A DNA stretch of 64,000 nucleotides, taken from Phycisphaerae bacterium (GTDB lineage Bacteria; Planctomycetota; Phycisphaerae; WQYP01). The stretch covers positions 85-64,084 of the forward strand of contig DASZZD010000060.1 in the NCBI GenBank assembly GCA_035545015.1. Direction: 5' to 3'. Each line of letters starts with the position of its first letter. The stretch's first letter is position 1. Below the pieces are notes generated by a model. That model searched no databases. It was not told where the DNA came from and was given only the letters and a program-made list of their open reading frames with translations. Below are positions 17,503 through 34,590 of the stretch, piece after piece. Made by a program: the position numbers and the translations under genes.

Positions 17503-17515
17503 TTGAACGGAAATC

Positions 17516-18191: not shown

Positions 18192-18283
18192 GGAAGTTCC
18201 TTTGCAAACCTGGAATGCGCCTGGCGCGGTGGATGCGGCGGTAAGGCGTCCTGACGTGCGTATTGTAGGCACGCAGCGTTCGG

Positions 18284-18661: not shown

Positions 18662-18746
18662 GCGCGTTGGCGGTTGTGGCGGAATTGGCCGAACGGTCTC
18701 GGGGCCCGAATCGTATACAGAGCGGCGGGCCTTCGAGGGATGGACC

Positions 18747-19100
18747 ATGGAAGATGGAACCCTGAGCTATCGCCGGTTTGTGGCGCGGGAGCGCCTATGC
18801 CCGATGGGGTTTTTTACATGGATATGGCTGGTGTGCGGGCTCACCGTTGGGGTCCTGCATGTGGCCTGCGAGTTCGCGTATAGATTCACAGATCCTCACA
18901 CGCCAACGCGTTGGAGCCGCTGGCTTGAGGAAGCATGCCTGGGATTTATGCTTGGCGACCTGATGTGGGGGATCTTCAGTGTTTCACTCATCTTCATTCT
19001 GCTGGCATGGACGGATGGTTCTGAGCGTGGAAGACTGGTGATGTGCGCGGTGATCTGCTTGACATTGCTTATGTATGAATCGCGGCATTTCGTGGTGTGA
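18747..19100 (+). CDS. hypothetical membrane protein
   Basis: 117-aa ORF with hydrophobic helices (FFTWIWLVCGLTVGVL, GIFSVSLIFILLAW, VMCAVICLTLLMY). Confidence 0.5.
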   Translation: MEDGTLSYRRFVARERLCPMGFFTWIWLVCGLTVGVLHVACEFAYRFTDPHTPTRWSRWLEEACLGFMLGDLMWGIFSVSLIFILLAWTDGSERGRLVMCAVICLTLLMYESRHFVV

Positions 19101-19124
19101 GGACCGGCGTGAGGGACCGTTACG

Positions 19125-19925
19125 TCAAGCGTTCGGCGGAGGGGGCAGGGGTTCGTTCTGGAGTTCGCGGCCGTAGAGCACGGAGTATTTGAGCGTTGCT
19201 CCGATCGTGGATTTGTAGGCGATCACCAAGCCGAAGCGGCCGTCCAGAAATGCTCCTTTGAGGATGTAATACTTGAGGAAGGTCAGGGGCGGGCGTGTGA
19301 GCAGGTGGAGCAGGGTGGCGCGTTTGCCGCGCGCCTGCATCGCGTTGGCGAGGATGGTGGCGTGTTCCTGCATGCGTGGGCCGTCGCAGAAGTCGGCGGG
19401 CGTGAAGGGGGTGAGGCGGTTGTGGAGGAGCGGGTATTTGAGTTTGTGCTGGGTGAAGCCGTATTTGGGGGTGCGGATTTCCGGGGCGGAGTGTTCGCCC
19501 CAGAGGGTGCGGTTTTTGTGGATCAGGCGCGTCTGGTAGTCCGGGGACCAGCAGCGGATGTAGCGGCGGTCGAGGTAGTTTTTTCGCGGCATTTCGAAGA
19601 TGGCGGCTTTTTCGAGGCGGTCGGGCGAGAGCGCCTGAATTTCCTGGCGCAGGCCGTCGGAAACTTCTTCGTCGGCATCGAGAAGAAGCACCCAGTCGGT
19701 GGGGCAGAGGGAGGCGGCGAACTGGCGTTGCTGGTTGTATCCGCGGAAGGGCTCGTAGACGGCGTGGACTTTGCCGGAGGGATGGTTGTTGCAGAGGGCC
19801 ATGGTGCCGTCGGTGGAGCCGGAATCGACCACGATGATGCGCATGCACCAGTCGAGCGAATCGAGGGCGAGGCGGATGCGGTGGGCCTGGTTTTTGGCGA
19901 TGATGCAGGCGGAAATGGGCAGCAT
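19125..19925 (-). CDS. family 2 glycosyltransferase (LPS-core type)
   Basis: SACIIAKNQAHRI, IIVVDSGSTDGT, LLLDADEEV (DXD). 266 aa. Confidence 0.85.
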   Translation of the reverse strand: MLPISACIIAKNQAHRIRLALDSLDWCMRIIVVDSGSTDGTMALCNNHPSGKVHAVYEPFRGYNQQRQFAASLCPTDWVLLLDADEEVSDGLRQEIQALSPDRLEKAAIFEMPRKNYLDRRYIRCWSPDYQTRLIHKNRTLWGEHSAPEIRTPKYGFTQHKLKYPLLHNRLTPFTPADFCDGPRMQEHATILANAMQARGKRATLLHLLTRPPLTFLKYYILKGAFLDGRFGLVIAYKSTIGATLKYSVLYGRELQNEPLPPPPNA

Positions 19926-19955
19926 GCGGGTCGTCAGCGGTCCTTCGTGGGGAGA

Positions 19956-20186
19956 TCAGAGGGGCGTTTTGAGGCCCATGGCCCGCAGGACGCACCAGCG
20001 TTTCCTGGCCTCGAAGAGGGCGAAAGCGCCCGCGCCGGCAGCGGCGGCGACCACCAGCCAGAGCCACCACACCTGCGCCCAGACGGCGAGGCCCGTGAGC
20101 ATGGCGGCTGTGAGCAGGGCCATGATTCCATAGACCAACCGAAGGCGCGCTCCCTGGGCGTCGATGTTGCATTTCATGGCGCCCAT
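19956..20186 (-). CDS. DUF2892 (YgaP-like) small membrane protein
   Basis: MKCNIDAQGARLRLVYGIMALL...ALFEARKRWCVLRAMGLKT matches the DUF2892 pattern. Start uncertain: ATG at 20186 or 20177; the ORF track extends to 20243. Confidence 0.6.
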   Translation of the reverse strand: MGAMKCNIDAQGARLRLVYGIMALLTAAMLTGLAVWAQVWWLWLVVAAAAGAGAFALFEARKRWCVLRAMGLKTPL

Positions 20187-20311
20187 CGTACGGAGAAAAG
20201 TCGAAACGCAAAACTCAAAAAGCAAAAACGACTGCACTTCCACCCTGCCCCCGCAACGGCCTTCCCACGCACCTCATGCGCTCCTTGTGCGGCGGCGGCG
20301 ATTCAGCAGGC

Positions 20312-20752
20312 CTATCCCTGGGGCAACAAATCCGAGGCGACGGTGTCGCCGCCGTCGCCGAGTTGTTTGGCGACGTAGCCTGGCTGCTGGGAGCGTTGGA
20401 ACTCGGCGTGATAGGCGTTGAGGATTTCCTTTTCGACCATATGGCGGCACTCGGCGTTGATGGGGTGGGCGACGTCGCAGTGCATTTTGACGCGTTCGCC
20501 GGTGGGCACCATTGCGGGGAGCTGGGCGCCGCACTGGTTGCAGAAGCGCGCGTGGAGGTGGTTTTTTCCGCGGCATTGGGCGCAGGAGGCCATGATTTTG
20601 CGGGAGGGCATGGCGACGAACAGGCCGTTGGGTCCATGGATGATTTTGATATCGCGGACGACGAAACAGCCGTCGATGGTGATGCAGCAGAAGCCGCGGA
20701 GCCGGTCCTGGCCATGGGGGGCGAGTTGGATGGCCACATCGGTGATTTTCAC
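20312..20752 (-). CDS. spoVG: SpoVG family protein with an inserted zinc-ribbon
   Basis: MKITDVAIQL...CITIDGCFVVRDIKIIHGPNGLFVAMPSRK ... DVAHPINAECRHMVEKEILNAY is the SpoVG core. A ~35-aa insert with CAQC-x10-CNQC lies between PSRK and DVAHPIN. Confidence 0.85.
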   Translation of the reverse strand: MKITDVAIQLAPHGQDRLRGFCCITIDGCFVVRDIKIIHGPNGLFVAMPSRKIMASCAQCRGKNHLHARFCNQCGAQLPAMVPTGERVKMHCDVAHPINAECRHMVEKEILNAYHAEFQRSQQPGYVAKQLGDGGDTVASDLLPQG

Positions 20753-21242
20753 AATGCACTCCTGTGTGCGAGAGAAGCGGGACGTGGCCCGTAAAAGGCG
20801 CAGGGATAGCGGAAGCGGTGAAAATCGAGGTGGCTAGCAGGGCTGAGCTTCAGCATAACGATGGCGGATAGTCAAAAAATGGCGCTGAGCTACAGCGCGA
20901 GGTCGCTGCCCGAAAGCCGCGGAAAACACAGGAACTATCCAGAAGAAGCGTCAGGGGTGGCGGGAAACCGCAATTCGCAAGCGGGTAGATTTGTGCATCA
21001 TGCGTTGCTGCGCGGCGAATTGCAAGCGCACCTGTGAAGGCGGTTGGAAGGAGAGATAGGATGGTTCCGGGAATGCCGGCGCCGGCGCAAGGCGACGCCG
21101 GAAAGGCGTTCGGAAAACGGTCGCGAACGCCGGCGCTGGCCGCGGGGAGCGCGTGCGCGCGTGCCTGCGGGGACGTTCATCCCCCGTAGTGGGGCCCTGC
21201 GCCGATGGCATCGCCCTCCCAAGAGGAGTATGCTCACGGCTC

Positions 21243-21905
21243 ATGCAAATGCTCGCGGCCGATCTTCTCTGGGGCATGACGCCCACCCAGATGGCCCTCC
21301 TGGCCAGCGGCGCCGCGCTGATCTTCGCCCTCAAGCGGTGGCGTCAGGTGGCGGTTCATCAGCGGGCGGGGGCGGCTGGGGCACGGTCGCTGGCAGAGCG
21401 GGCGCGGGCGAGCGGGCGGTCAGCGGAAACAGCCGAGGCGCTGGCGGTGGGGTTGAATCATCCGATGGCCGTGCAGAGCGGTGGAGGGGGGGGCGGACGA
21501 TCGCCGTTGAGCGTGCGGGAGCTGACGGTGGAAATTCAGGCGTTGTTGGGGGAGGTGGAGGAGACGGCGCGGCGGGCGGCGGCGCAGGTGGACAACCGGT
21601 ATCGCAAGCTCGAGCAACTGGTGCTTGAGGCCGACGACAAGATTCAGCGGCTTGAGGCACTGATGGCGGCGGCCCAGCGCACGGGCGCTCGGGGCGACGT
21701 GCTGGCGGCAACTGGAGGCGCGGAACTGCTCTCGCGCCTCCGCCAGGAACGCGGGGCTCCCTCGGCGATCGAAGACCCGGCGTATCAACCGATCTATCGC
21801 CTTGCCGATGCCGGCCGCACGCCGCGCGAGATCGCCCAGGAGCTTGGGCGGCAACCGGGTGAAGTGGAGCTGATTCTGGCCCTGCGGAAGCGGGCCGGCG
21901 TCTGA
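21243..21905 (+). CDS. hypothetical protein with N-terminal TM helix, coiled coil and C-terminal HTH-like motif
   Basis: Start set at ATG 21243 (MQMLAADLLWGMTPTQMALLASGAALIFAL). Central heptad-like region. C-terminus YRLADAGRTPREIAQELGRQPGEVELILALR resembles DUF2802-type HTH tails. Confidence 0.55.
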   Translation: MQMLAADLLWGMTPTQMALLASGAALIFALKRWRQVAVHQRAGAAGARSLAERARASGRSAETAEALAVGLNHPMAVQSGGGGGGRSPLSVRELTVEIQALLGEVEETARRAAAQVDNRYRKLEQLVLEADDKIQRLEALMAAAQRTGARGDVLAATGGAELLSRLRQERGAPSAIEDPAYQPIYRLADAGRTPREIAQELGRQPGEVELILALRKRAGV

Positions 21906-21973
21906 GAAGCCATTTCAAAAATGCGGCATGGGTGGGCCGCCGATGTTTCTGATCGGAATGGCCAGCGTCCTTA

Positions 21974-22031
21974 GAACATGGGCAGGATGACCATGCCAGC
22001 ATGATTCGAACATGGGCAGGATGCCCATGCC
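21974..22031. repeat. two tandem REP-like palindromic units between convergent genes
   Basis: GAACATGGGCAGGATGACCATGCC (21974-21997) and GAACATGGGCAGGATGCCCATGCC (22008-22031). The second forms a perfect CATGGGC-AGGAT-GCCCATG hairpin. Confidence 0.8.
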
Positions 22032-22047
22032 ACGTTTGACATGGACG

Positions 22048-23664
22048 TTATGCGCCCGCCATGGTGCGGTCGATGCGTGCCAGTGTTTTTTCGCGGCCGA
22101 GGAGCGCGATGGTTTCGAGCATGGGCGGGGTGACGGTGTTGCCGGAGAGGGCGACGCGGAGCGGTTGTGCCGCGGCGCCGCGCTTGCCGCCGGTGTCCAC
22201 GCCCAGGGCAAGAATCCGTTCCATCGGTTCGGTCAAGCCGGTTTTGGTCCAATCCGTTACCGGTTCGAGGATCGCCCGGATGTGGCGCAGGAATTCCATG
22301 CCGCCGTTGTTGCGCACGAATTTTTCAAGCGCCTTGGCGTCGGTCGCCGGCTCTTCAAAAAAGAACCGGGAATTTTCGGCCATTTCGGCGAGCGTCACCA
22401 TCCGCTCCTGATACATCGCCAGCAACTCCAGGAGCATGTCGCGGTTGGCCTGCTTGAGCGGGAAATCGGTGACGGCGTTGAAGGATTCCACGGCGTCGGC
22501 GAGGCGTTCGAGCGACGACTTGCGGATGTATTCGCCGTTCATCCAGGCGAGCTTTTTGCGGTCGAAGCGTCCCGGCGTTTTCTGAATGCCGTCCAGCGAG
22601 AACAGCTCGAGCATCTCGTCGGGCGTGACGATTTCCCGATCGCCGCCGGGAGACCAGCCCACGAGGGCGATGAAATTGCGGAGCGCTTCGGGCAGGTAGC
22701 CGCTTTTGCGGAAGTCCTGGACGTCGATTTCCGGCAAGCGCGTGCCGGTGACCGCCGCCAGTTTCACGGCGATCTCGACGGCGTCGGTCTTTTTCGCCAT
22801 GAAATCCTGCACGTCTTTGAGCGGGACGCCCGACTTTTCCCCGAGCGGCGCGAAATCTTTGGTCCCGCTTTTCTGAATGTCCGCGCGCACCGCCTTGGCC
22901 TTTTCGCGCTTGGACATCTTCGTGTTGTCCATGTTGAAGACCAGCGGCAAATGGCCGTGCGCCGGCGGCGACCAGCCCAGCGCCTCGTACAGGCCCAGGT
23001 GCTTGAACGTGTTCATCAGATGTTCCTGCGCCCGCAGCACATGGGTGATGCCCATGTGGTGGTCGTCGATCACCACCGCGAAGTGGTAGGTGGGAAAGCC
23101 GTCGGATTTGCGGATGACGATGTCATCGTGCTCATCGGCCTTTACGGTGACATCGCCGAGGATCAAATCGTGGACGGTGATGTCTTTGTAGGGCATGGCG
23201 AAGCGCACGACCGACTTCACACCCTCTTGAGGCGCAAGCTGTCGGCCGGGCATGTCGCGGCGGTAGCGGAACGGCCGCTTGGCCTTCTCTGCCGCCTGGC
23301 GCATGGCGGCGAGCTGCGCGGGCGATTCATAGGCCTCATAGGCGGCGCCCCTGGCGAGAAGCTCATCGAGATGCTTTTGATACAGCGGCAGGCGTTCGGA
23401 CTGGAAGTAGTCATTCTTCGCCCCGCCGACGACCGGCCCCTCATCCCAGTTCAGGCCGAGCCAGAGGAGATCGTTGAGGATGCCTGCCGCGGATTCGGCG
23501 GTGGAGCGAACCTGGTCAGTGTCTTCGATGCGCAGGACGAAGGTTCCGCCCGGCCCGCCATGGACCTGATGCTTGTGGGCGAAGAGCCACGAGTACAGGG
23601 CGGTGCGTGCCCCGCCGACATGCAGGAACCCGGTGGGCGAAGGAGCAAAGCGAGTTTTAACCAT
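22048..23664 (-). CDS. gltX: glutamate--tRNA ligase
   Basis: MVKTRFAPSPTGFLHVGGARTALYSW (HIGH-type), KMSKR, class I fold order. Start set at ATG 23662-23664; the ORF-track extension to 23949 is not protein-like. Confidence 0.92.
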   Translation of the reverse strand: MVKTRFAPSPTGFLHVGGARTALYSWLFAHKHQVHGGPGGTFVLRIEDTDQVRSTAESAAGILNDLLWLGLNWDEGPVVGGAKNDYFQSERLPLYQKHLDELLARGAAYEAYESPAQLAAMRQAAEKAKRPFRYRRDMPGRQLAPQEGVKSVVRFAMPYKDITVHDLILGDVTVKADEHDDIVIRKSDGFPTYHFAVVIDDHHMGITHVLRAQEHLMNTFKHLGLYEALGWSPPAHGHLPLVFNMDNTKMSKREKAKAVRADIQKSGTKDFAPLGEKSGVPLKDVQDFMAKKTDAVEIAVKLAAVTGTRLPEIDVQDFRKSGYLPEALRNFIALVGWSPGGDREIVTPDEMLELFSLDGIQKTPGRFDRKKLAWMNGEYIRKSSLERLADAVESFNAVTDFPLKQANRDMLLELLAMYQERMVTLAEMAENSRFFFEEPATDAKALEKFVRNNGGMEFLRHIRAILEPVTDWTKTGLTEPMERILALGVDTGGKRGAAAQPLRVALSGNTVTPPMLETIALLGREKTLARIDRTMAGA

Positions 23665-23764
23665 GAAGGAAACTCCGGAGCGGAAAGCAGAGTTCCGTAT
23701 TAAAGGCGAAACGTTCGCCGAAAAAAAGCGGCGAGCAGAGATAATGAATCCCTGACCGCCGTAG

Positions 23765-23800
23765 TTGCGTAAGCGCGAGGCTGCGTACATAATGTGCGCA
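23765..23800 (+). promoter_or_regulatory. candidate higBA promoter (TTGCGT-N17-CATAAT) overlapped by a 19-bp palindrome (operator candidate)
   Basis: -35 TTGCGT at 23765-23770 and -10 CATAAT at 23788-23793. Palindrome TGCGTACAT-A-ATGTGCGCA at 23782-23800 (one mismatch). AGGAGGA at 23801-23807 precedes TTG 23811. Confidence 0.5.
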
Positions 23801-23810
23801 AGGAGGACGA

Positions 23811-24119
23811 TTGCACCTGATTGACTTGCGCACGCTCCGGGAGTTTTGGCGCCGCTATCCCGAAGCGGAGACCCCGTTGCGTCGCTGGTATGGCGTTGCC
23901 CGAAGGGCGAATTGGGCCAGCCTTCAGGAGGTTCGCACCGCCTTTCCACACGCCGATGCGACCGTCGTGAAGAGCGGTAGTGTTGCGACGATCTTCAACA
24001 TCTGCGGCAACAAATTTCGGTTGATCACCGCGATCCACTACAATCGACAAAAGATCTTCCTGATGATGGTTCTTACCCATCATGAATACGACAAGGACTC
24101 CTGGAAGGCGAAGTTATGA
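23811..24119 (+). CDS. higB: HigB-type toxin (RelE superfamily mRNA interferase)
   Basis: 102 aa. FWRRYPEAETPLRRWYGVARRANWASLQEVRTAFPHAD...FNICGNKFRLITAIHYNRQKIFLMMVLTHHEYDK matches the HigB family. TTG start with a strong SD. Confidence 0.8.
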   Translation: MHLIDLRTLREFWRRYPEAETPLRRWYGVARRANWASLQEVRTAFPHADATVVKSGSVATIFNICGNKFRLITAIHYNRQKIFLMMVLTHHEYDKDSWKAKL

Positions 24120-24541
24120 AAGTTACTGGCCGTCACCGTGCGCGCGACAGTTATCTGCAACTCGTCCAGCAATTTCCGCTGGTGGCGATTCGTGATGATG
24201 CGCACCTGGCTGCGGCGGTGCGGGTCGCCAAGAAACTGGGGATTCGTGATGAGGTGACGCTTGACGCGGGCGAAAGCGACTATCTCGACGCCCTTTGCGT
24301 TCTCATTGAAGCGTACGAACAAAGCCATCACGCCATCGAGGATCGTGATTTGCCGCCATTGGAGGCTTTGCGGTACCTCATGGAGGAAAGCGGGATGGGA
24401 ACCGCCGATCTGGGGCGGCTGCTGGGGAACCGGAGCCTCGCCAGCCAAATACTTCTTGGCAAACGGCAACTCAGCAAGTCGCATGTGCTCGCGCTGTCGC
24501 GCCATTTTCACGTGGATGCCGGATTGTTCCTTGGGGAATGA
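24116..24541 (+). CDS. higA: HigA-type antitoxin (XRE-family HTH)
   Basis: 141 aa. ATGA overlap with higB. C-terminal HTH LRYLMEESGMGTADLGRLLGNRSLASQILLGKRQLSKSHVLALSRHF. Confidence 0.8.
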   Translation: MKVTGRHRARDSYLQLVQQFPLVAIRDDAHLAAAVRVAKKLGIRDEVTLDAGESDYLDALCVLIEAYEQSHHAIEDRDLPPLEALRYLMEESGMGTADLGRLLGNRSLASQILLGKRQLSKSHVLALSRHFHVDAGLFLGE

Positions 24542-24589
24542 TCGCGCACCGTTGTCGGCACACGCGCCGCCGTATACCATGCACCTACC

Positions 24590-24946
24590 ATGAACGAATC
24601 CGAAACGTCCACAGCCCTTGGCGATCACCAGCAAACGCTTCTCTATCAGCCCGGTACGCGCGTGCGCATCACCCAGCAGATCCCCCGCCGGACGGACACC
24701 CTGGTCACCGTCACGGAGGGCAAGGTGATTCGGCAGGAGCGCCAGCGGTCGGGTTCCTGGTATGCGCGGAACAAAAACGCCAAGGTGTGGCTCGATCGCC
24801 TGATCATCCAAAAGCCCGACGGCGAGGTATCGATCCTGAACCTGGATGAATACAGCGTGGTGGAGGTGCTCGACGGCCCCGAAGGTCTTCGCGCCAGCCC
24901 GCCGTTGATCCTGCCTTCTCAGGACCCCACGGCCGGGGTCACCTGA
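24590..24946 (+). CDS. hypothetical protein
   Basis: 118-aa ORF, non-repetitive (RVRITQQIPRRTDTLVTVTEGKVIRQERQRSGSWYARNKNAKVWLDRLIIQKPDGEVSILNLDEYSVVEVL). No family recognised. Confidence 0.5.
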   Translation: MNESETSTALGDHQQTLLYQPGTRVRITQQIPRRTDTLVTVTEGKVIRQERQRSGSWYARNKNAKVWLDRLIIQKPDGEVSILNLDEYSVVEVLDGPEGLRASPPLILPSQDPTAGVT

Positions 24947-25261
24947 CCTTTTACAGTGCGGCGGGGGGGAGGTTCCCGAGTTTTTCCCTAACGCCGGGCG
25001 GCGGCGCGTGCGCCAGCCTTGTGGTGCGAAACTGGGGAATCTGCGGGGTTTCGTCTTTGCGGGAAGGAATGCGGTCGAGCGTGCGCGGTGCGGGGGGCAG
25101 CCCCTTCTCGGCCGTACAGGGGCCAGTTGGTCCGATTTCGTATCTATTTTCGCGTGAGTTTGCGCCGATAGAAATGGCAGACGGGCGTTGGACTTCCCCT
25201 CTTCCCAACGCTAGATTTCTGTCAAGGAGAGAAGGTTATAGGGGTTTTTAAAGGATCTCTT

Positions 25262-25498
25262 ATGATCGCTGACACGGCCAAGAAGGCCGATACCACCAAC
25301 AGCCCGGCGACTTCGGCGGAAGCGAGAATACATTGGGCGGCGGCGCCGACGGGGGCCAACCCGGAACTCGAAGCACGCTTTGAAGCGATGCGCGCCCGCA
25401 ACTGGATCACCGACCGCATGGTCGAGCAATACCAGAAGCACTGGCACTGCTCCCGCGAACAGGCGCTTGAACGCCTGCTGCCAAAAGCCGGCGAATAA
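25262..25498 (+). CDS. small hypothetical protein
   Basis: 78-aa ORF. GGAGAGAAGG lies ~25 nt upstream, too far to count as a Shine-Dalgarno site. Helical-looking C-terminus (ELEARFEAMRARNWITDRMVEQYQKHWHCSREQALERLL). Confidence 0.45.
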   Translation: MIADTAKKADTTNSPATSAEARIHWAAAPTGANPELEARFEAMRARNWITDRMVEQYQKHWHCSREQALERLLPKAGE

Positions 25499-25608
25499 TT
25501 CTCGCCGGTAAATAGCTGCGCTCCGGGAATATGCACGCGGCGCTGACCCCGCGCCTTGATCCCAAGCCCTCCTGGTGTCCGCTCCGGCCATAGCCGACTG
25601 CCTCCTCC

Positions 25609-26247
25609 TCATTCCGGTTTTCGCGCCGCGGCCGCATGAAACGTCCGGCCCTCCGTGATGTACTTCCTTTCAAAATTCGTTCCCACAATCGACCCCGCCG
25701 GGGCGTTCGCTTTCAGCGGCGCCGGCGAGTCGAATTCGACCACGTCCAGGTACGTCTGTTCCTTGAGCACCTGCTGCATGTGCGCAAAGTAATCCGCGTG
25801 GTCGGTCACGAGGCGCAGCTTGCCGCCGGGGACGAGGATGCGATGCACTTCCTTGATGAAGGGCACCTGCACGAGCCGCCGCTTGTGATGGCGCGCTTTG
25901 GGCCAGGGATCGGGAAAGTAGACATGGACGGCGGCGATGGAGCTATCGGGAATGTGGCAGCGCACCCACCACGAAGCCTCGGCATGCACCATGCGCGCGT
26001 TGCGCGTGTCGTGGCGGCGCAGGCGATCCGCGGCGAACTCGGCATAGGCCCTGGCATACTCGATGCCGATGTAATTGTGCTCGGGCTTGGACTCCGCTAT
26101 CGCGAGGAGGAACGTTCCCTTTCCCGATCCGATCTCCAGCTCCACCGGATGTTCGTTGCCGAAGATCGTTTGCCAGGAGAGCTTCCCGGCTTCATCGGGC
26201 GCATCAAGGAGAAATTCAGCGGGTTGCAGGTTGGGGCGAAGGGCCAT
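25609..26247 (-). CDS. trmB: tRNA (guanine-N7)-methyltransferase
   Basis: ELEIGSGKGTFLLAIA (SAM motif), VYFPDPWPKARHHKRRL, TDHADYF, TNFERKY. Start set at ATG 26245-26247 (MALRPNLQP). Confidence 0.9.
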   Translation of the reverse strand: MALRPNLQPAEFLLDAPDEAGKLSWQTIFGNEHPVELEIGSGKGTFLLAIAESKPEHNYIGIEYARAYAEFAADRLRRHDTRNARMVHAEASWWVRCHIPDSSIAAVHVYFPDPWPKARHHKRRLVQVPFIKEVHRILVPGGKLRLVTDHADYFAHMQQVLKEQTYLDVVEFDSPAPLKANAPAGSIVGTNFERKYITEGRTFHAAAARKPE

Positions 26248-26423
26248 GAAAGATCCTGGGCGATATGACGGGGATATGCGCACGGCGTGCGGGAGGGCCG
26301 CAGGATATGTCAAATGCCGGCGTTTCGCCACGCGGGCGGTGCGATGGCTGGGATCGTCTGGCTCACAAGCACTCCTTCCGTTTGGCAGGCGTTCCTGTGA
26401 CGGGAGCATAGCGATACGCAAGA

Positions 26424-27881
26424 TCAGGGGTTTGATACTGCCACGACATGCGGCGCGACCCGCTCGAGGATGGCGGGAAGGTCGTAAAAAAACAGAGTGT
26501 GGTTTTCGACATCGACGACGATTTGGTTGTTGGCGAGGAGCCCGAGGCCGTAACACTGACCGCCGGACCCCGGCGTATCGAGGATTACTTCCTGCCGTCC
26601 TGTGGTGGTGTTCCAGAGGAAAAGACCGTCGCCTCCGGCGAGGAGGTGGCAACTGTCCGGGGACCAGAGGAGGGTATCGAGGTGCTCGAAGGAGCCAATG
26701 TCACCGGCGCGGAGCTGGTGAAGCGGAGCACCATCCGTGGTGCGGAAGAGCAGGAGATCCAAGCCTCGTCCTTCCGCAGTGTTCTCGCGGGGCAAATAGG
26801 CAAGCGCGAGAATTCGCCCATCGGGGGAAAACGCGTCGATCCAGCGGTGTGTGCCGGCGTAGAGGGGAGCGATTATCTTGTGGGTGTGAAGGTTCCAGAG
26901 TGAGAGGTTGCGGTCTTTCGTCTGGATTACTGCGAAGGATCCGTTGGGAGAGGGATGGAAGGCCACGGCGCCGGGAGGAACAAGATCCGGGAGTGGAAGG
27001 CCGGCAAAGGTATGCGCGTCGAAGGCAGCCAGATGATCGTCGCCCCAGCGAAGCAGCAGGTGCTGGCCGTCGGGGGTGAAAATCGGGTCGTAGTAGTAAT
27101 AACCGACGTTGTCGCCGGCGGACGGGCGAGCGAAAGTGAAGAGGGGCTCCCAGGAGGAGGTATTGAAGACGGTGCAGGGAGATTCTCCGGCGACAAGTTG
27201 GGAACCGTTGGGGCTGAAAGCGATTTCATTGCGCAGTCCCGACAGGCGATGCCGATCGATCAGGCGGTGAGTGGCGGCATCCCAGACAGCGATTGGTTGG
27301 GCATTGGCAACCGTAGCGAAGTGCTTGCGATCGGGCGAGACGGCCAGGCCGCCTTCGACCTCGTCGTCGCCGGCGGGAATGGAAGATGCGGGTGCGATCG
27401 TGGGAATGAACGAACCCATTCCTGAGCCGGATTCGCGCAAGACATCCAAAACGGGCTGGGGCAGATTCTGGCGATCATAGACGCGGGAAAACGAGCGGCC
27501 GTTCCACTGGAACTGCAGCAGGAGCCTGTGGGCAGGCGGAGGGAGCCGCTGGTGATCGTCTGGAAGCGTCGCGAAGAGCAGTTGGAGGAGCGGGATTTCA
27601 AAGGGAAGGAAGCGTTTGGCGGCATCGCCGCCGCGATGGCCAAAGGAATTGGAAGACTCCCATGATGTACGGCCGTCGGCGCTGACAGTGTAGCTTGCAT
27701 GGTAGTCGGTATCGCCGTGGGGTGGAGGATCGTCGACGGGAGTAATGATGAGAATGGCGAGCGGGTCGGCGCTTGCGGCGTGGGTTGCCACCCAATGTGT
27801 GTAAGTTTCAGGTGGAGGCGTGGCGCCGGTGGCGGCAAGGGCAAACAGCGGGAGAAAAGCGATGCAATGGAAGCGCGACAT
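26424..27881 (-). CDS. secreted beta-propeller (WD40/PQQ-like repeat) protein
   Basis: 485 aa. Signal peptide MSRFHCIAFLPLFALAATGA. Repeated FSP(D/N)G..L.. strands (AFSPNGSQLVAG, FTPDGQHLLL, FHPSPNGSFAV, AFSPDGRILALA, LWSPDSCHLLAG). Confidence 0.7.
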   Translation of the reverse strand: MSRFHCIAFLPLFALAATGATPPPETYTHWVATHAASADPLAILIITPVDDPPPHGDTDYHASYTVSADGRTSWESSNSFGHRGGDAAKRFLPFEIPLLQLLFATLPDDHQRLPPPAHRLLLQFQWNGRSFSRVYDRQNLPQPVLDVLRESGSGMGSFIPTIAPASSIPAGDDEVEGGLAVSPDRKHFATVANAQPIAVWDAATHRLIDRHRLSGLRNEIAFSPNGSQLVAGESPCTVFNTSSWEPLFTFARPSAGDNVGYYYYDPIFTPDGQHLLLRWGDDHLAAFDAHTFAGLPLPDLVPPGAVAFHPSPNGSFAVIQTKDRNLSLWNLHTHKIIAPLYAGTHRWIDAFSPDGRILALAYLPRENTAEGRGLDLLLFRTTDGAPLHQLRAGDIGSFEHLDTLLWSPDSCHLLAGGDGLFLWNTTTGRQEVILDTPGSGGQCYGLGLLANNQIVVDVENHTLFFYDLPAILERVAPHVVAVSNP

Positions 27882-28089
27882 CTAAACCCTCCCAGCAGTC
27901 TCCCCGCCACCCTCCAGCAGTATACCGCTTGCCCTGACCGGTCTGGGGCCTCTTTCAAATGCGGGGTCCTGAGCGGACGCGGGATGGAACACCGGGCGGC
28001 CTTTTCACGACATTTTTCTGCCCGTCACTGAAGTTGCTGGGAGCACTGCGAAAAATGATCCAGCTCCGCGCCGCGCCGGCGTGCCACCG

Positions 28090-28098
28090 TGTTATACT
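28090..28098 (+). promoter_or_regulatory. candidate extended -10 (TGTTATACT) upstream of uvrD
   Basis: TG-T-TATACT at 28090-28098, 35 nt before ATG 28133. No clear -35. Confidence 0.3.
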
Positions 28099-28132
28099 CG
28101 CTGGTCTGTCGCACACCCACCACGGATCCGTC

Positions 28133-30691
28133 ATGAACGCCTGGAACTCTTCCGCTTCCTCGTCCGCCGCATCGCCCGAACGTGCTCTGGAAGGACTCAC
28201 TCCGCCGCAGCGCGAGGCCGCTTCGTGGATTGATGGACCGCTGCTGGTGCTGGCCGGGGCGGGCTCGGGAAAGACGCGCACCATCACGCGGCGGATCGCT
28301 TACATGGTTGCCTGCGGGATTCCGGCGTGGAACATTCTGGCCATCACGTTCACGAATAAAGCCGCCGGGGAAATGCGGGAACGGGTGAATCATCTGCTCA
28401 GGGAGATGGGCACCGGGATGCGCACGGAGCGGGCGTGGGGTCCGCAGGGTCGGGGCGTAACGGTGGCCACGTTTCATGCGCTGTGTGCGCGTCTGCTGCG
28501 CGAATTCGCCGAGGCGGCGGGACTCTCGAAGACGTTCACGATTTTCGACACCAGCGACCAGGGCAAGGCCGTCAAGCAGGCGATCAAGGATGTGAACATC
28601 TCGCCGGAGAATTTCCAGCCCGCCGCCGTGCTCAACGCAATCAGCAACGCGAAGAACAAGCTGCAATCCGCGGCCGCCTATACGAAACAGGCGGGCGCGT
28701 TTTTCGAGAAAAACGTCGCGCGCGCCTACACCCGCTACGAGCAGATTCTCACGGAGAACAAGGCTGTCGATTTCGACGACCTGCTGCTCAAAATGGCGAT
28801 TCTCCTGCGCGACAACGCCGACGTGCGCACGCAGCTCCAGGAGCGCTATCAGTACATCCTCATCGACGAATACCAGGACACCAACCACGCCCAGTTCATG
28901 CTCGCCCACATGCTCGCCATGGGGCACAAGAACATCTGCGCCACCGGCGATCCCGACCAATCCATCTACGGCTGGCGCGGCGCGAATCTCAACAACATCC
29001 TGGAATTCGAGCAGTTTTATCCCAACGCCAAGGTTGTGCTGCTCGAACAGAATTACCGCAGCACGAAGGTGATTCTCCAGGCCGCCAGCGCGCTGATTTC
29101 CAAAAATACGAAGCGCAAGAAGAAGGACCTCTGGACCGAGAACGAAAGCGGTCCGAAGATTCAGGTTCTGTCCTGCAACGATGAGCACCAGGAGGCTTCG
29201 GAGATCGTGCGCCGCCTGAAGGAGCAGCACGACAGGAACGGTCTTGCCTGGGAAAAAATGGCCGTTTTTTACCGGGTGAACTCGCTCTCGCGCGTGCTCG
29301 AAGACGCGCTGATGAAGCAGGCCGTGCCTTATCAGATCGCCCGCGGCACGGAATTTTACGCGCGCAAGGAAGTGAAGGACGTGCTGGCGTATCTGCGGGT
29401 GATCGCCAATCCCGGGGACAGCGTGTCGCTGGAGCGCATCATCAACGTGCCGACGCGCGGTCTTGGCGACACCAGCCTGCTGAAAATCCAGGCCTTCGCC
29501 TCGCAGCAGCGTCTGACGCTTCTGGAGGCGTGCGCCCGCGCCGATGAAGTGCCGGATCTTGCCACGCGCGCCGTCAACTCCGCCAAAAAGGTGGCCGGCC
29601 TGTTCGATGCGTGGCAGCGCTTCGTCGCCGGCCAGTCGCCGCTCGATGCGGCCGAAAAATCGAACTCCGGCGAACAGTCCGGTGCCGCCGGCGATCCGCT
29701 TTTTGATCCCTCGCTCCTGGAAGCCGCGCAGGAAGAACTCGCCGAATCGGCCGCCGAGGGAGGCGCCGAACGTCCCGTTTTTCTCATTCCCGGCGGCATC
29801 CGGGGCCTCATGGAAAAGGTCGTCCGCGAGTCGGGCCTCGAAGCGGATGTCAAAAAATCCGACTCCGATGAAGGCGCCGCCGACACCGGCAACGCGCGCT
29901 CGGCGAACGTCGCCGAACTCATCTCCGTCGCCGCCGAATTCGATGTGCAGAATCCCGAAGGCACCCTGCAGGATTACCTCGAGCAAGTCACGCTGGTTTC
30001 CGATGCCGACAAGCTCAAAGAGGCGGGCGGCAAAGGCGAGGGGGCGGTGACGCTGATGACGCTTCACGCGGCCAAGGGTCTGGAGTTTCCCTTTGTTGCG
30101 ATGGTGGGCGTGGAAGATGGCCTGATCCCGCACGCCCGGGCCGTCGGTTTCGCCGCCAATCCCGACGAGATGGAAGAAGAGCGCCGCCTCGCCTTCGTCG
30201 GGATCACGCGCGCGATGAAGCAGCTCGTGCTCTCCCACGCCCGCTACCGGATGATCCGCGGCCAGACCGAACGCACCGTCGAAAGCCAGTTCCTCAACGA
30301 GATGCCCGCCGAATGCTTCGAGGAAATCGATCTCACGGGCGACGATGAAGGCGTCGGCAGCCTCGGATACCGCGATGAGGCGTCCTATGCTCGCCGCGCG
30401 CAGCAGCAACGCGGCGCGGGCGGGGCTGGTTCCGGCTTTGGCGGCTATGGAGGCGGGAGCGGTGGAGGAGCACGGCGCGAAGCCGAAGCCGCCAGCCAGC
30501 GCCGCCAAGCGGACGCCGTCGCCGGGGAATTCCGCAAAGGCGTTCTCGTGCGCCACCCGCAGTTTGGCCTGGGGCGCATCGAATCCATCGAGCCCTCCGG
30601 CGCCACCACCAAGGCCGTCGTGCACTTCCAGGGCTCGGGCAAGAAAACGCTCATCCTGCAATATGCGCGGCTGGAAAAGGTCGACGCCTGA
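28133..30691 (+). CDS. uvrD: ATP-dependent DNA helicase, UvrD/PcrA family
   Basis: LAGAGSGKTRT (Walker A), TFTNKAAGEM, IDEYQDTN, GDPDQSIYGWRGA, NYRS, TLHAAKGLEF, VGITRA. Gly-rich linker and Tudor-like tail (VRHPQFGLGRIESIE). Start set at ATG 28133. Confidence 0.92.
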   Translation: MNAWNSSASSSAASPERALEGLTPPQREAASWIDGPLLVLAGAGSGKTRTITRRIAYMVACGIPAWNILAITFTNKAAGEMRERVNHLLREMGTGMRTERAWGPQGRGVTVATFHALCARLLREFAEAAGLSKTFTIFDTSDQGKAVKQAIKDVNISPENFQPAAVLNAISNAKNKLQSAAAYTKQAGAFFEKNVARAYTRYEQILTENKAVDFDDLLLKMAILLRDNADVRTQLQERYQYILIDEYQDTNHAQFMLAHMLAMGHKNICATGDPDQSIYGWRGANLNNILEFEQFYPNAKVVLLEQNYRSTKVILQAASALISKNTKRKKKDLWTENESGPKIQVLSCNDEHQEASEIVRRLKEQHDRNGLAWEKMAVFYRVNSLSRVLEDALMKQAVPYQIARGTEFYARKEVKDVLAYLRVIANPGDSVSLERIINVPTRGLGDTSLLKIQAFASQQRLTLLEACARADEVPDLATRAVNSAKKVAGLFDAWQRFVAGQSPLDAAEKSNSGEQSGAAGDPLFDPSLLEAAQEELAESAAEGGAERPVFLIPGGIRGLMEKVVRESGLEADVKKSDSDEGAADTGNARSANVAELISVAAEFDVQNPEGTLQDYLEQVTLVSDADKLKEAGGKGEGAVTLMTLHAAKGLEFPFVAMVGVEDGLIPHARAVGFAANPDEMEEERRLAFVGITRAMKQLVLSHARYRMIRGQTERTVESQFLNEMPAECFEEIDLTGDDEGVGSLGYRDEASYARRAQQQRGAGGAGSGFGGYGGGSGGGARREAEAASQRRQADAVAGEFRKGVLVRHPQFGLGRIESIEPSGATTKAVVHFQGSGKKTLILQYARLEKVDA

Positions 30692-30811
30692 CGCCCGGTG
30701 TGAACAGCGCTAACCCTCACGCGATCGCGCAGCGTTGGCCGCCTCCCGCCGGATTTCTGTGGACGCCCGAGCGCCCCGGGTTACACTTGCGGCACCTTTT
30801 CATGCGAAAGG

Positions 30812-31363
30812 ATGCCGATGTCTCAATTGCCTGGCGCCTCCGGTCCCACCACCTACGTCCAGCCGCGATCCAACGGCCTCGCCATCGCCGGCTTCGTCAC
30901 CTCGCTCGTGGGCATTGTCACCTGCGGACTTCTGTGTCCGATCGGCCTGATCCTCTCGTTCATCGCGCTCTTTCGCCGCCCACGCGGTTTCGCCGTCGCC
31001 GGATTCATCATCGGCATCGTTGGCACCCTCATCCCGCTGGTCATCTTCCTGATCTGGGGCGCGGCTGTGTTTGCCATATTCGGCCTTGCCGTCGCCGCGA
31101 GCGGCGGTCTGCAGACCCTTCAATCCATGACCACCGCCGAAACTCGCATCCACACCGCTTACGCCGAGCACACGTCCCTCCCGACTGACGACGACGGCGA
31201 TGCCCTCATCGACGATCTGCCCGATCAATGGCATCACACCTTGCGCTACCACCGCCTCAGCCCCACCCGCTACGAGCTTCGCAGCGCCGGCGCCGACGGC
31301 ACCTTCGATACCCCCGATGACATCACCAAAACCTTCACAGGCACCGACACCGGCAGCGAATAA
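30812..31363 (+). CDS. DUF4190-like membrane protein with GspG-like C-terminal motif
   Basis: 183 aa. Helices LAIAGFVTSLVGIVTCGLLCPIGLILSFIAL and FAVAGFIIGIVGTLIPLVIFLIWG. C-terminus YELRSAGADGTFDTPDDI resembles the pseudopilin G tail. Confidence 0.6.
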   Translation: MPMSQLPGASGPTTYVQPRSNGLAIAGFVTSLVGIVTCGLLCPIGLILSFIALFRRPRGFAVAGFIIGIVGTLIPLVIFLIWGAAVFAIFGLAVAASGGLQTLQSMTTAETRIHTAYAEHTSLPTDDDGDALIDDLPDQWHHTLRYHRLSPTRYELRSAGADGTFDTPDDITKTFTGTDTGSE

Positions 31364-31375
31364 CGGGCGGTCGCC

Positions 31376-33339
31376 TCACTCGACCTTCGGCGAAAACGCC
31401 TCCGCGAACACCTCCAGCATCAACAGCGCAAAGAGCCGATGCGTGTGATCGCGGTTCGCCGACTCATGCTCCGCCAGCAACTGCTCCACCGCCGGCGCCC
31501 GCAAATGGGTCCGCACGAACGATCCCGCCCCCAGCAACCGCTCCCGCAACGGCTCGCGCAACTTCCCCCGAAACCACGCTCCCACCGGCACCGCAAATCC
31601 CTTCTTTCCCCGCCCGCGCACCTCCGCCGGCAGCTCCGCCGCAAACGCCTCCCGCAGAATCCGCTTGCCGCGCGCCCCCGCAAACAACGCCTCCTCCGGC
31701 AACCCGTTGGCAAATCCCACCACCCGATGATCCAGAAACGGCGAGCGCACCTCCAACGCCACCTGCATCGCCGCCGTGTCCACTTTCCACAGCACATCGC
31801 CCGGCAGATATTCCTGCTGATCCCGCACCCGCGCCAACTTTGCCGCCGGAACATCGTCCGCCAGCCCATATTCCTCCGGCAGCGGAAAATAATCCAACAC
31901 CGGCTCGCCCAGCAGTTCCTCGATCCCCCCCCCCCCCCGCCCCCGCCCCCGCCCTCCGGCGAAAAAATTTCCACCAGCCGCGTGTAGCGCTCGGACGCAA
32001 TTCCCGCCCGCGCCGCCGCCGCCAGCCGCCGGTACCGCTCCCGCTTCGCCAGCGATCCCAAGGGCATCGTCCGCGGCACAAAGCGCGATAGCGGCGACCA
32101 CCGCGCCAGCATGCGCATCGCCCGATAGCGGTCATATCCGCCGAACAATTCATCCGCCCCATCCCCCGAAAGCGCCACCGGCGCGATCGACCGCACCGCC
32201 TTGCTCAATTGATACGTCGGCAACAGCGACGAATCCGCAAACGGCTGGCCCAACCCCGCATGCATCAACGCCGCCAAGTCTCCCAGCACGTCCCCGTCCG
32301 CCGACACCTCCAGCCGCGTGTGCACGCTGCCGATTTTCCGCGCGACCTGCTCGGCGAATTCCGTTTCGTCAAAGCCCGCCTCCGCAAACCCCACCGATAC
32401 CGTGCGAATACTTTCGCCACCCCCGCGCCGCGCCGCCGCCTGCATCAACGCCGCCACGATCGACGAATCAATCCCCCCCGACAAAAAGCACGCCACCGGC
32501 ACATCCGATACCAGTTGAGATCGCACCGCCTCCTCCATCAACCCGTGCAGCTCTCCGCGCGCCCGCTCAACCTCCCGCTCCGCCGCTCGCTCCTCCGGCC
32601 GAACATCCCCCATCGGCGTCCAGTACCGCTTTCCATCCAGCACCTCCCCGCGCAGCCGCACCCATGCCCCCGGCAACACCTGATGCACATCCCGCCACAC
32701 CGTCTGCGGCGCCGGAAAATATCCCAGCAGCAAATACAAGCCGATCTGTTCCCGTGGCAACCTCCGCGGCACCTCCGGCCACGCCAGCACGCTCGGTATC
32801 GTGCTCCCAAACGCCACCCCATCTTCCAGGCTCGCATAAAACAGCGGCTTCTGCCCCATCCGATCGCGCGCCAGAAAAAGCGTGTCCACTTCGCGGCCGT
32901 TTTCCCCCCGCCGAAAATCCCACACCGCAAACGCAAACATCCCCAGCAATTTCCCCGGCAACTCCTCCCCCCATTCCTCCCACCCATGCACCAGCACCTC
33001 CGTGTCCGAATGATCCGTCGCGAACCGATGCCCCGCACGCATCAGCGCCGCGCGCAGCTCCGCGTGATTGTAAATCTCCCCGTTGAAGACCACCTGCACG
33101 CGGCCATCTTCGTTGCCCATCGGCTGCGCGCCGCACGGCAGATCAATTACTGCCAGCCGCCGATGCACCAGCGCCGCCACCTTCCCCGCACGCGGATCCA
33201 CAAATTCCCCCCGCCCGTCCGGCCCCCGGTGCGCCAGCGCTTCCGACATGCCCCGTATTCCTCCCGCCATCGCCGGATCTTTCCACGGATTGCCCGCCCC
33301 CGCCGCCGTCCATTTCACCACGCCCGCGATCCCGCACAT
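31376..33339 (-). pseudogene. asnB: asparagine synthase (glutamine-hydrolysing), reading frame broken in a 14-nt homopolymer
   Basis: ORF-track 31420..33339 carries MCGIAG (Ntn Cys) and SGGIDSS. ORF-track 31376..32101 carries the C-terminal LPGDVLWKVDTAAMQVALEVRSPFLDHRVV... The two frames meet at C14 (31925-31938; G14 on the coding strand). A run of 12 or 15 would keep the frame. Confidence 0.85.
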
Positions 33340-33348
33340 GAAAAAACC

Positions 33349-34590
33349 TCAGCCCGAGGCCCGATCGGCGTCCGAAGAATCCGCCCCGGCAAACCCCGCC
33401 CGCATTTCTCCATCCGCCACCCGCAACGTCACCGCCAATTTTCCCCCTACGAACGCCGCCAGCTTTTCCCCAAGACACTCCCGATGCCAACCGGTCATCA
33501 AAGCATGCTTCTCCAGCGGCTTTTTCCGATGCACCAGCCGCGCCAAACTCAACACCTCATTCTGACTCGTCACCAGCCCCGGCGCAATGCTCTGGCCCAG
33601 GCATATCCCCTGCGCCGCCACCCACAGCATCTCCCCGAGCCGCTTCACTTCCGCCGAATCCTCCCCCGGAATGTGAATGTGTGGCTGCTCATTCTCCGGC
33701 ACCGCCCGCCCACGCCGCACCGCATCCAGAAATGGCTCCGCGTACGTGTCCAATTGCTCCTGCGGCATCTCCCGCAGCCCGCGCAACGCCTTCTCATCCT
33801 TCGGCATCCGCGTCGCTATCTCCAGCAACGCCTCATCCTTCATCACCGACCGCGATGGCACATCATGCTCGTACGCGATCTGCTCCCGCAACGCCGTCGC
33901 CTCGCGCAGCACCGACAACTGCATCCCGCTCAACCCCGCCGCCCCGCGAATTTTCACGAACAGTTTCCGCGCCTGCACCGGCGCCGCCGAGGCCGCGCAC
34001 ATCTCGTTGCACGCCGCCCGCATCCAGTCCAGATGCCCCAGCTCCCCGATCCGCCGCTTCATCGCCTCATGCACCGCCGGCAAATAGCGCACGTCGTCGA
34101 TCGCATACTGAAACTGCGCCCTGGAAAGCGGCCGCCGGTCCCACGCCGAATACGTGTGCGCCTTCTCCAGCGTCACGCCCGTGAAATGCTCCACCGCCCG
34201 CCACAGCGCCGTCGGATAGGACAGCCCCATCATCCCCGCGCCGATCTGCGTATCGAACACGTTCTGCGCCACCCGCGCGCTGTGCTGCCACACGATCTCG
34301 ACATCCTGGTCTCCCGCGTGGCAAATCTTCTCGATCGCCGGATCGCCAATCAGCGCCCACAACGGCGACAGCGCCTCCTCCCGCAGCGCGAACGGATCGA
34401 TCAGCTCCACCCGCTTCGCCGTCGCCACCTGCACCAGGCACAGCACCGGCTGATACGTGTTCTCCCCAATGAACTCCGTATCGAACGCAAACCTCCCCGC
34501 CGCGCGAAGCTCATCACAAACCCCCGCCAGCTCCTCAGGTGTTTGAATCAGGTGCGTCGGAACAGCCGGTAAATCATCAGGTGCTTCCAT
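33349..34590 (-). CDS. rnd: ribonuclease D (DEDD 3'-5' exonuclease + HRDC)
   Basis: FAFDTEFIGENTYQPVLCLVQV, HAGDQDVEI, YAIDDVRYL and an HRDC-like region. Start set at ATG 34588-34590 (MEAPDDL). Confidence 0.85.
   Translation of the reverse strand: MEAPDDLPAVPTHLIQTPEELAGVCDELRAAGRFAFDTEFIGENTYQPVLCLVQVATAKRVELIDPFALREEALSPLWALIGDPAIEKICHAGDQDVEIVWQHSARVAQNVFDTQIGAGMMGLSYPTALWRAVEHFTGVTLEKAHTYSAWDRRPLSRAQFQYAIDDVRYLPAVHEAMKRRIGELGHLDWMRAACNEMCAASAAPVQARKLFVKIRGAAGLSGMQLSVLREATALREQIAYEHDVPSRSVMKDEALLEIATRMPKDEKALRGLREMPQEQLDTYAEPFLDAVRRGRAVPENEQPHIHIPGEDSAEVKRLGEMLWVAAQGICLGQSIAPGLVTSQNEVLSLARLVHRKKPLEKHALMTGWHRECLGEKLAAFVGGKLAVTLRVADGEMRAGFAGADSSDADRASG

Follow-up and report, generated by a model that had tools for sequence, protein, structure and literature searches.

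The stretch between 21.5 and 31 kb of a 64-kb window of Phycisphaerae DNA (assembly GCA_035545015.1, contig DASZZD010000060.1, of 64,877 bp) is, as judged from base composition, the core of a ~20-kb-wide convergence zone that formed in place, and a real terminus-type boundary. An earlier reading of the letters without database searches (hereafter the sequence-only reading) had described it as a diffuse, terminus-like change in strand composition. The window is the whole stretch of DNA that was analysed; coordinates refer to it and skew values to its + strand, and GC4 skew denotes GC skew at four-fold degenerate sites. UvrD, BioF and GltB assign the window to the class Phycisphaerae (Planctomycetota). 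Of the window species the analysis covered ~65 kb and of a sister species ~58 kb of one contig, and replication direction was read from base composition throughout. Genes were fixed by Pfam/NCBIfam matches together with the gene calls of relatives, and the names proposed earlier (gltX, higBA, trmB, beta-propeller, uvrD) were all borne out by Pfam, weakly so for the helix-turn-helix (HTH) partner of higB. Scans for tRNAs and Rfam families gave no matches.

The window falls into four skew domains. GC skew is ~-0.35 in domain A (1-2300), +0.2 to +0.43 (~+0.3 overall) in domain B (~3400-21000), -0.18 to +0.3 with a mean of ~+0.05 in domain C (~21800-30600), and -0.2 to -0.46 (about -0.35 to -0.45 overall) in domain D (30600-64000). 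The computed profile confirms the positive, near-zero and negative succession that had been described from hand tallies. Two such tallies inside uvrD were recounted; the first (28381-28440, C13/G28) was exact, whereas the second (28861-28920) is C25/G10 and not C26. When the transitions themselves are delimited, the window reads as follows (ORF, open reading frame; aa, amino acids).

1-2100: domain A, + strand C-rich; a 176-aa ORF, an HTH_17 protein and the 3′ two-thirds of bioF; GC skew -0.23 to -0.44, GC4 skew -0.94 and -0.95
2100-4150: origin-type (divergent) switch from - to +, its steep part inside bioF, with skew intermediate through HU and the next ORF
4150-20500: domain B, of reversed polarity; + strand G-rich, genes on both strands
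20500-36000: terminus-type (convergent) gradient from + to -
36000-64000: domain D, + strand C-rich; GC4 skew -0.75 to -0.97 in most genes

The bias is near saturation, with GC4 skew running from +0.94 to -0.97, and it concerns G versus C only. At third codon positions the skew per gene is +/-0.5-0.8 and tracks the DNA strand rather than the gene strand. In domain B, AlgH (+0.94) and KpsF (+0.88) are matched by P450 and PhoH, which lie on the - strand and still have GC4 skews of +0.83 and +0.86 on the + strand. Likewise, the HTH_17 gene (+ strand, domain A) has a GC4 skew of -0.95 and the ORF at 53380-54018 (+ strand, domain D) one of -0.84. With n = 100-800 sites in each gene, sampling noise falls far short of explaining skews of +/-0.8-0.97. 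It had been said earlier that ~80% of the genes in 31-64 kb are on the - strand, in keeping with leading-strand co-orientation; the actual figure is higher, 19 of the 21 confidently called genes lying on the - strand, which is the G-rich strand there, and the co-orientation stands. From this co-orientation in domain D we infer that the G-rich strand is the leading strand; replication is the presumed driver of the asymmetry. On the leading strand so assigned, four-fold sites are 82-88% G, 3-11% C, 3-4% A and 4-5% T. The former description of the strands as G/T-rich and C/A-rich has to be dropped. AT skew at four-fold sites is only 0.00 to -0.11, a negligible asymmetry, and the strands are therefore G-rich and C-rich.

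A logistic fit to the four-fold sites places the centre of the terminus-type zone at 25.6-26.7 kb, with a 10-90% width of ~19.7 kb and a standard deviation (SD) of ~8 kb. The interval first singled out, 21.5-31 kb, is thus the core of the gradient and not its full extent, since the sigmoid runs from ~20.5 to 36 kb. Within the zone GC4 skew falls from +0.78 (SpoVG) through +0.34 (a 217-aa ORF), +0.24 (GltX), -0.08 (a 118-aa ORF) and +0.01 (TrmB) to -0.16 (UvrD), -0.60 (DUF4190), -0.76 (AsnB), -0.81 (Rnd) and -0.94 (EmrE). The genes of the zone, and the two that matter at the left end of the window, are the following.

1617-2852, - strand: bioF, intact
2940-3284: HU
22048-23664, - strand: gltX (Pfam)
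23734-24570, + strand: higB/higA-like toxin-antitoxin insertion, a gap in the blastn alignment with the sister species, which is without the module
23811-24119, + strand: higB (Pfam HigB_toxin, E 7.8e-26)
24116-24541: higA-like HTH partner of higB (weak HTH_3 match)
25609-26247, - strand: trmB (Pfam)
26263-28085, - strand: lineage-specific block with the beta-propeller gene, a variable spot between trmB and uvrD
26424-27881, - strand: beta-propeller gene (Pfam)
28133-30691, + strand: uvrD (Pfam); skew passes zero inside

The sequence-only reading had seen intermediate codon endings here without a sharp break. This holds as a gene-by-gene graded series, from which the beta-propeller insert departs. 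The beta-propeller gene interrupts the gradient with a GC4 skew of +0.50 and a G+C content at four-fold sites of just 0.73; being absent from the sister species and atypical in composition, it is a lineage-specific insert. Along uvrD, where a drift from G-ending to C-ending codons had been reported, skew crosses zero. The patchiness inside the gene becomes weaker at four-fold sites and is therefore partly due to amino-acid content. A recombination mosaic was considered for the uvrD patches and is unnecessary, given this weakening and the return of some of the patches in relatives.

The origin-type switch is far sharper. A two-segment likelihood analysis of third positions places the change point at 2235-2238 (2-lnL support interval 2205-2244, log likelihood ratio 76), and a logistic fit to four-fold sites gives a centre of 2499 and a 10-90% width of ~1.0 kb. 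The sister species has its step at the matching codon offset, 621 nt versus ~620 nt from the 3′ end of bioF, and the BioF protein is evenly conserved along its whole length. A narrow origin-type switch (~1 kb) accompanied by a broad terminus-type one (~20 kb) is what would be expected of fixed initiation and stochastic termination. Several studies of soil or rhizosphere contributed sequencing runs, at least 10 in all, in which the DNA of the window was found. The flip at 2.3 kb is spanned by independent contigs (a Logan contig covering 111-3050, a Joint Genome Institute (JGI) contig and an NCBI metagenome-assembled genome (MAG) contig) and the zone itself is covered by an exact-match contig (22010-28628). 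Because independent contigs cover both switches, an assembly chimera is excluded.

The sister species is represented by an NCBI MAG (GCA_035548175.1; UvrD 89% and BioF 85% identity) which carries both genes on one 139-kb contig. The two loci compared, L164 on the uvrD side and L168 on the bioF side, are 14.7 kb apart. Insertions aside, 53-9110 and 20711-40662 of the window have collinear counterparts in the sister. Moreover, its skew is equally extreme, with a - to + flip in bioF and a + to - change around uvrD, and its domain A goes on leftward for another 10 kb or more, with skews of -0.3 to -0.5. The two switches are ~35 kb apart in the sister as against about 24-26 kb in the window, the wider spacing being due to insertions. 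One of the differences lies in the trmB-uvrD interval, where the sister has a non-homologous 5.4-kb block in place of the beta-propeller block.

We then asked of each part of the window whether it is at equilibrium relative to the sister. In A, B and distal D the skews of the two species are near-identical and the differences between them are mainly transitions, the ratio of G/C differences to transitions being 0.17-0.58; in 20.7-33.4 kb this ratio is 0.7-0.9. G/C differences in domain B are balanced (59 versus 71), and AlgH and KpsF combine ~1% G/C differences with a GC4 skew of ~+0.9. Domain D is likewise stationary over 35.4-40.7 kb, at 93-95% identity. In 20.7-23.7 kb, by contrast, G in the window stands against C in the sister in 182 cases, versus 51 of the reverse, and in 31.4-33.4 kb the counts are 17 versus 66, the opposite direction. 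The sign flips at ~28.6 kb, inside uvrD. By these counts, domain B is maintained under a pressure opposite to that on its flanks and the zone alone is out of equilibrium, for a decaying inverted or imported segment would be expected to show reduced skew and a directional G/C excess, and B shows neither. The synonymous sites from gltX to asnB thus appear to be still converting, left behind by a boundary that moved. The relative L167 was saturated at synonymous sites when used as an outgroup for polarising the substitutions, and a within-species comparison (L081) yielded just 2 differences.

More distant relatives were compared as well. They are given here with their identity to the window protein.

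L167 (UvrD 73%): weakly + up to uvrD, then ~0
L172 (UvrD 71%): order uvrD-DUF4190-asnB-rnd-M42-EmrE, with GC4 skews of +0.86, +0.24, +0.64, +0.30, +0.25 and 0.00; boundary several kb further right
L171 (UvrD 70%): - to + between RecQ and NicO, 2 kb left of uvrD; + domain of ~8-10 kb, which ends after asnB
L170 (BioF 67%): bioF-HU-...-AlgH-KpsF block strongly +; - to + change gradual over 6-8 kb, left of bioF
L175 and L176 (BioF 72% and 68%): sign equal on both sides of bioF

Gene order is conserved on both sides. The series from the 176-aa ORF through HTH_17, bioF and HU to AlgH and KpsF is collinear in L168, L170 and L176, and uvrD-DUF4190-asnB-rnd-M42-EmrE is collinear in L164 and L172. Within the unchanged order, the GC4 skew of uvrD goes from -0.16 in the window to -0.01 (L164), +0.32 (L167), +0.30 (L171) and +0.86 (L172), and that of asnB from -0.76 to -0.53, -0.09, +0.60 and +0.64 in the same lineages. 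Across the loci compared, a terminus-type boundary by uvrD-asnB is therefore recurrent, yet it drifts within a conserved gene order, and an origin-type boundary is found with it at a short, variable distance, bound to no single sequence. The position of the zone is tied neither to a gene nor to a rearrangement breakpoint, and has shifted by kilobases between lineages. Gene-level skew mosaics are common in the genomes of this clade, with transposases and inserts at ~zero skew, and the history of individual blocks therefore contributes as well. For example, L173 (17.6-20.6 kb) and L174 have blocks with a third-position GC skew of -0.78 to -0.88 beside near-zero or mildly + genes (a transposase, a TPR protein and ribosomal S7/S12).

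Among well-established processes, replication fork direction alone, to our knowledge, combines polarity along the DNA with independence from the direction of transcription and the ability to reverse at a point. We put at about even the chance that the explanation lies in one family of readings, in which a termination zone without a fixed site closes a short rightward arm, with origin and terminus adjacent or with a local extra initiation site. DNA synthesis would start rightward at or near bioF/HU, proceed for 24 +/- 8 kb and then meet, or be halted ahead of, leftward forks which replicate both flanks, A and D. Forks would thus diverge at a fixed place in bioF/HU and converge in a zone centred near 26-28.6 kb. 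The near-unbroken series of - strand genes in D would face the rightward fork head-on and may help to halt it. Two layouts could give this pattern: origin-like and terminus-like sites side by side, as in unidirectional replicons, or a chromosome that is conventional except for one additional, local initiation site. It is the layout of the whole replicon that we infer here, from the polarity of these stretches. Of the earlier terminus interpretation, the genuine, diffuse convergent boundary survives; that it is the terminus of the chromosome is not established. Similarly, variable fork-meeting points do not account for the diffuse change as a pure steady state, as the gradient is at least partly non-equilibrium and the boundary has moved.

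Several observations weigh against this family of readings. No DnaA boxes were found within 2-5 kb and no AT-rich unwinding element near the switch, nor were there any boxes near the switches in L168 and L170, and dnaA and dnaN are absent from the window. Pfam and NCBIfam scans of the ORFs near the switch detected no rep or par genes, and no plasmid-type initiator, partition genes or iterons were found at the origin-type switch. The steepest part of that switch lies within coding sequence, and no sequence element is common to the origin-type switches of different lineages. L175 and L176 are without a polarity flip at bioF and the flip of L170 is gradual and 3-7 kb from bioF; the initiation-type boundary is therefore not deeply conserved or sequence-defined. 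In domain B only ~50% of the coding length is co-oriented with the supposed rightward fork. The gradient of the sister is non-monotonic (gltX block -0.36, inserted block +0.6, uvrD 0), so here too the history of individual blocks contributes. The k-mer depths of contigs show no step across the zone (run X1, ~7.3 in B/C versus ~7.0 in D), at a depth of ~5-10x, which gives low power, and in populations that were possibly not growing. Lastly, the dif-type site suggested for 21.5-31 kb and its flanks was not detected: pattern searches and a position weight matrix built from six dif sequences scored no better than chance, both in the window and in six related loci. This absence counts for little, as a published survey was unable to predict dif in Planctomycetes at all (PMC3025954). 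As to KOPS-type polar motifs, in 64 kb with such near-saturated skew any G-rich word would be skewed through composition alone.

Two further features were inspected. The conserved HTH_17 neighbour of bioF is predicted to be an excisionase-like winged HTH with a coiled coil (mean predicted local distance difference test score 61, a low-confidence model), and no initiator- or Rep-like fold is evident in this low-confidence model. Two DnaA-box-like 9-mers (5930 and 6110) are part of a repeat element, to which we return below.

An ordinary chromosome terminus, lying roughly opposite a conventional oriC, with B and D in separate long replichores and A as a local anomaly, is an unlikely explanation of the zone. 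The sign of the change is terminus-type, the genes of D are co-oriented with the G-rich strand, the transition from + to lower skew by uvrD-asnB-rnd recurs in five lineages, and lineage-specific insertions cluster between trmB and uvrD, as is often seen at termini. However, domain A is saturated (GC4 skew -0.95), stationary relative to the sister and at least 12 kb long. A is thus genuinely under opposite pressure, and a divergence point at 2.2-2.5 kb is still needed. Moreover, the + domain of L171 is just ~8-10 kb long, and a free-running terminus between megabase replichores should far exceed an SD of ~8 kb unless trapped, and no dif was found.

We also regard as improbable a polar process other than a fork, such as nicking or breakage near bioF/HU followed by one-directional resection and re-synthesis or by strand-displacement synthesis, in tracts of ~24 +/- 8 kb. 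The sharp start and broad end of domain B, with an SD (~8 kb) that is large relative to its length, would suit such tracts, as would the start in coding DNA and the absence of origin motifs from the searches above. Against it, the asymmetry of B matches that of the flanks in magnitude and in its G-versus-C character, which argues for the same process running the other way, and no nickase, relaxase or mobile-element genes lie nearby.

The flip at 2.3 kb had been attributed to either a rearrangement or an unusual replication programme, and the evidence (an intact bioF, an unbroken gene order and B at equilibrium) favours the latter. A rearrangement scar, in which B is an inverted or transposed segment whose edges were blurred by gradual re-equilibration, is accordingly very unlikely. 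A succession of minus, plus and minus is what an inversion inside a single replichore classically leaves, relatives do show gene-level skew mosaics with transposases and inserts at ~zero skew, and the lineage-specific blocks in the zone have skews of their own. However, the left boundary falls inside the intact, evenly conserved bioF, where a scar is largely refuted, and relatives keep the gene order of the window at either boundary, even L176, in which the flip is absent. An inversion with ends near 2.3 kb and in the zone does not fit this collinearity. Domain B is also as saturated as D, with no excess or directional G/C substitutions relative to the sister, and a scan of 1500-6300 found no long inverted repeats other than a short array in the AlgH-KpsF spacer.

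Import by recombination of B, or of the intermediate zone, from a lineage with opposite or no skew is highly improbable. Orthologues in related lineages do have opposite skew states and recombination junctions can lie inside genes, but if the donor were saturated in the opposite sense, most synonymous G/C sites would be mismatched, a divergence too great for homologous exchange. Moreover, both species have B in a stationary, saturated state, and the zone is a gene-by-gene graded series rather than a set of blocks. An assembly or sequencing artefact, for example a chimeric contig or a strand-specific error, can be set aside with near certainty, as its sole point is a likely homopolymer error in asnB, while identical sequence and junctions occur in Logan contigs from several runs, a JGI contig and the NCBI MAG, and a different species carries the same skew pattern.

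The arrangement favoured above, a short rightward arm closed by a site-less termination zone, resembles that of known unidirectional replicons. In Pseudoalteromonas chromids, which replicate unidirectionally, ter2/dif2 adjoins ori2 (PMC7858055). As in these chromids and in unidirectional theta plasmids (R6K and ColE1 types), the origin- and terminus-type landmarks of the window are adjacent rather than opposite. Both flanks share the - sign, over at least 12 kb (in the sister) and at least 33 kb, with switches at ~2.5 and ~26 kb, and insertions between origin and terminus alter the spacing during evolution, again as in unidirectional chromids and plasmids. Unlike them, the window has no RepA-type initiator, iterons, parAB or dif beside the switch, holds core housekeeping genes (gltX, uvrD, gltBD, purB, HU), and has a reversed arm of 24-35 kb with a broad end and a skew that is an order of magnitude larger. 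With a canonical terminus (Escherichia coli, Bacillus subtilis; dif or a Tus/RTP trap) the zone shares convergent GC skew, co-orientation of genes on the far side and insertion-prone surroundings. It differs in having no dif-like 28-mer, in a transition of ~20 kb instead of a step, in an origin-type switch just 24 kb off and in a position that drifts in a conserved gene order.

Where a chromosome has several active origins, as in archaea, in naturally fused Vibrio cholerae chromosomes and in E. coli engineered with an extra oriZ, forks terminate between the initiation sites in zones that no sequence defines. The window is like them in its extra divergent and convergent switches of skew or fork direction and unlike them in that no initiator gene or origin motifs were identified in it. 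Two origins firing in synchrony would not give the spacing seen here, since domain D runs for at least 33 kb without a further switch. In animal mitochondria, near-saturating skew at synonymous sites is set by the strand exposed in replication; it extends to A/T as well as G/C, and deamination is given as its cause. The skew of the window is likewise near-saturating and independent of gene orientation, but its bias is in G versus C alone. As in the bacteria of SkewDB, the leading strand is G-rich and the skew serves as a record of replication direction and rearrangements; however, bacterial GC skew is typically ~2.5% in that database, whereas the whole-sequence skew of the window is 30-45% and reaches 97% at four-fold sites (PMC8941118). 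The most unequal replichores in SkewDB are ~3-4:1 (PMC8941118).

If the polarity map records fork direction, the window belongs to a core-gene replicon with side-by-side origin and terminus landmarks, an arrangement demonstrated so far only in plasmid-derived chromids, and the lineage would show how a termination zone drifts when no fixed site anchors it. Near-total synonymous G/C asymmetry makes changes of fork direction, past or present, readable to a few hundred bases. Tentatively, and as a possibility short of an even chance, we suggest that this soil Phycisphaerae lineage copies a core-gene replicon in a strongly one-sided manner or from a non-classical initiation site, with boundaries 8-35 kb apart that move through genes, and that it combines this with a G-versus-C strand-specific mutation, free of an A/T component, which dictates codon choice by gene orientation.

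A pure G/C strand bias also raises the question of the mutational mechanism. As the bias is purely G/C and G/C differences dominate where polarity recently changed, the effective process would be one in which C gives way to G in the sequence of the leading strand. There are two candidate routes to this outcome: C to G transversion via abasic sites filled with C, or C to T deamination followed by very fast T to G change under strong GC pressure. The data could fit either. Distant relatives, at 64% UvrD identity or less, have ordinary skew with a maximum of 0.1-0.2, and scans with UvrD returned best relatives at 64% (GTDB species genomes) and 50% (JGI metagenome contigs), with no common gene order. 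The bias has a practical consequence. Four-fold codons end in G on the leading strand and in C on the lagging strand, so a single codon-usage model sees one orientation; codon-model gene calling collapsed onto G-ending, leading-strand genes and known genes were missed. Automated gene calls in such genomes may thus be orientation-biased.

Two genes in domain D depart from their saturated neighbours (GC4 skew -0.92 to -0.95), namely a Y-family (DinB/Pol IV-like) polymerase gene (50856-52106, - strand) at -0.40 and a YcxB-like gene (55661-56290, - strand) at -0.38. Their weak skew suggests recent arrival or reorientation. A Y-family polymerase in the window is of interest given the G/C mutation bias; genes of this family are common.

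A 9-bp unit, TTTCGTGNN (on the other strand CACGAAANN), forms short tandem arrays at seven intergenic places, with 14 pattern matches versus 0.06 expected.

5894-5918: 9-bp array
6130-6163: 9-bp array
11900-11924: 9-bp array
35277-35301: 9-bp array
36589-36604: 9-bp array
58354-58378: 9-bp array
59986-60010: 9-bp array

In six of the seven arrays the CACGAAA reading is on the coding strand just 3′ of a stop codon (AlgH, a 1135-aa gene, M42, EmrE, UxaE and a further ORF), and the array may be a terminator-associated or 3′-UTR (untranslated region) element. Metagenome k-mer depth spikes at several of the arrays and the motif is therefore multi-copy. The AlgH-KpsF spacer (5887-6170) has two of these arrays as an inverted repeat around ~220 bp, with an inner imperfect inverted repeat. 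It contains two DnaA-box-like 9-mers, TTGTCCACA (5930) and, on the - strand, CTATCCACA (6110), and the 60-mer with the highest AT content in this part of the window is found there too. The spacer is situated 3.5 kb into domain B, away from the skew switches.

Toxin-antitoxin modules turn over around the zone. The higB/HTH pair, between gltX and the 118-aa ORF, is found in the window only, and a Gp49/HTH pair between M42 and EmrE (L164, 17716-18496) in the sister only; both have ~zero skew. In the rnd-M42 interval, the 760 bp at 34630-35392 have no sister counterpart, show raised metagenome k-mer depth and include one 9-bp array, and may be a small repeated or mobile element. Finally, asnB (31420-33339, - strand; a 639-aa ORF) loses its frame after a poly-Gly stretch, at a tract (31923-31957) which on the + strand is a run of 13 C plus C-rich repeats. 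Downstream of the tract it translates as W/C/R-rich nonsense, relatives have an intact 645-aa AsnB, and independent contigs end at the poly-C tract. The loss of frame is probably a homopolymer assembly error and possibly a real frameshift.

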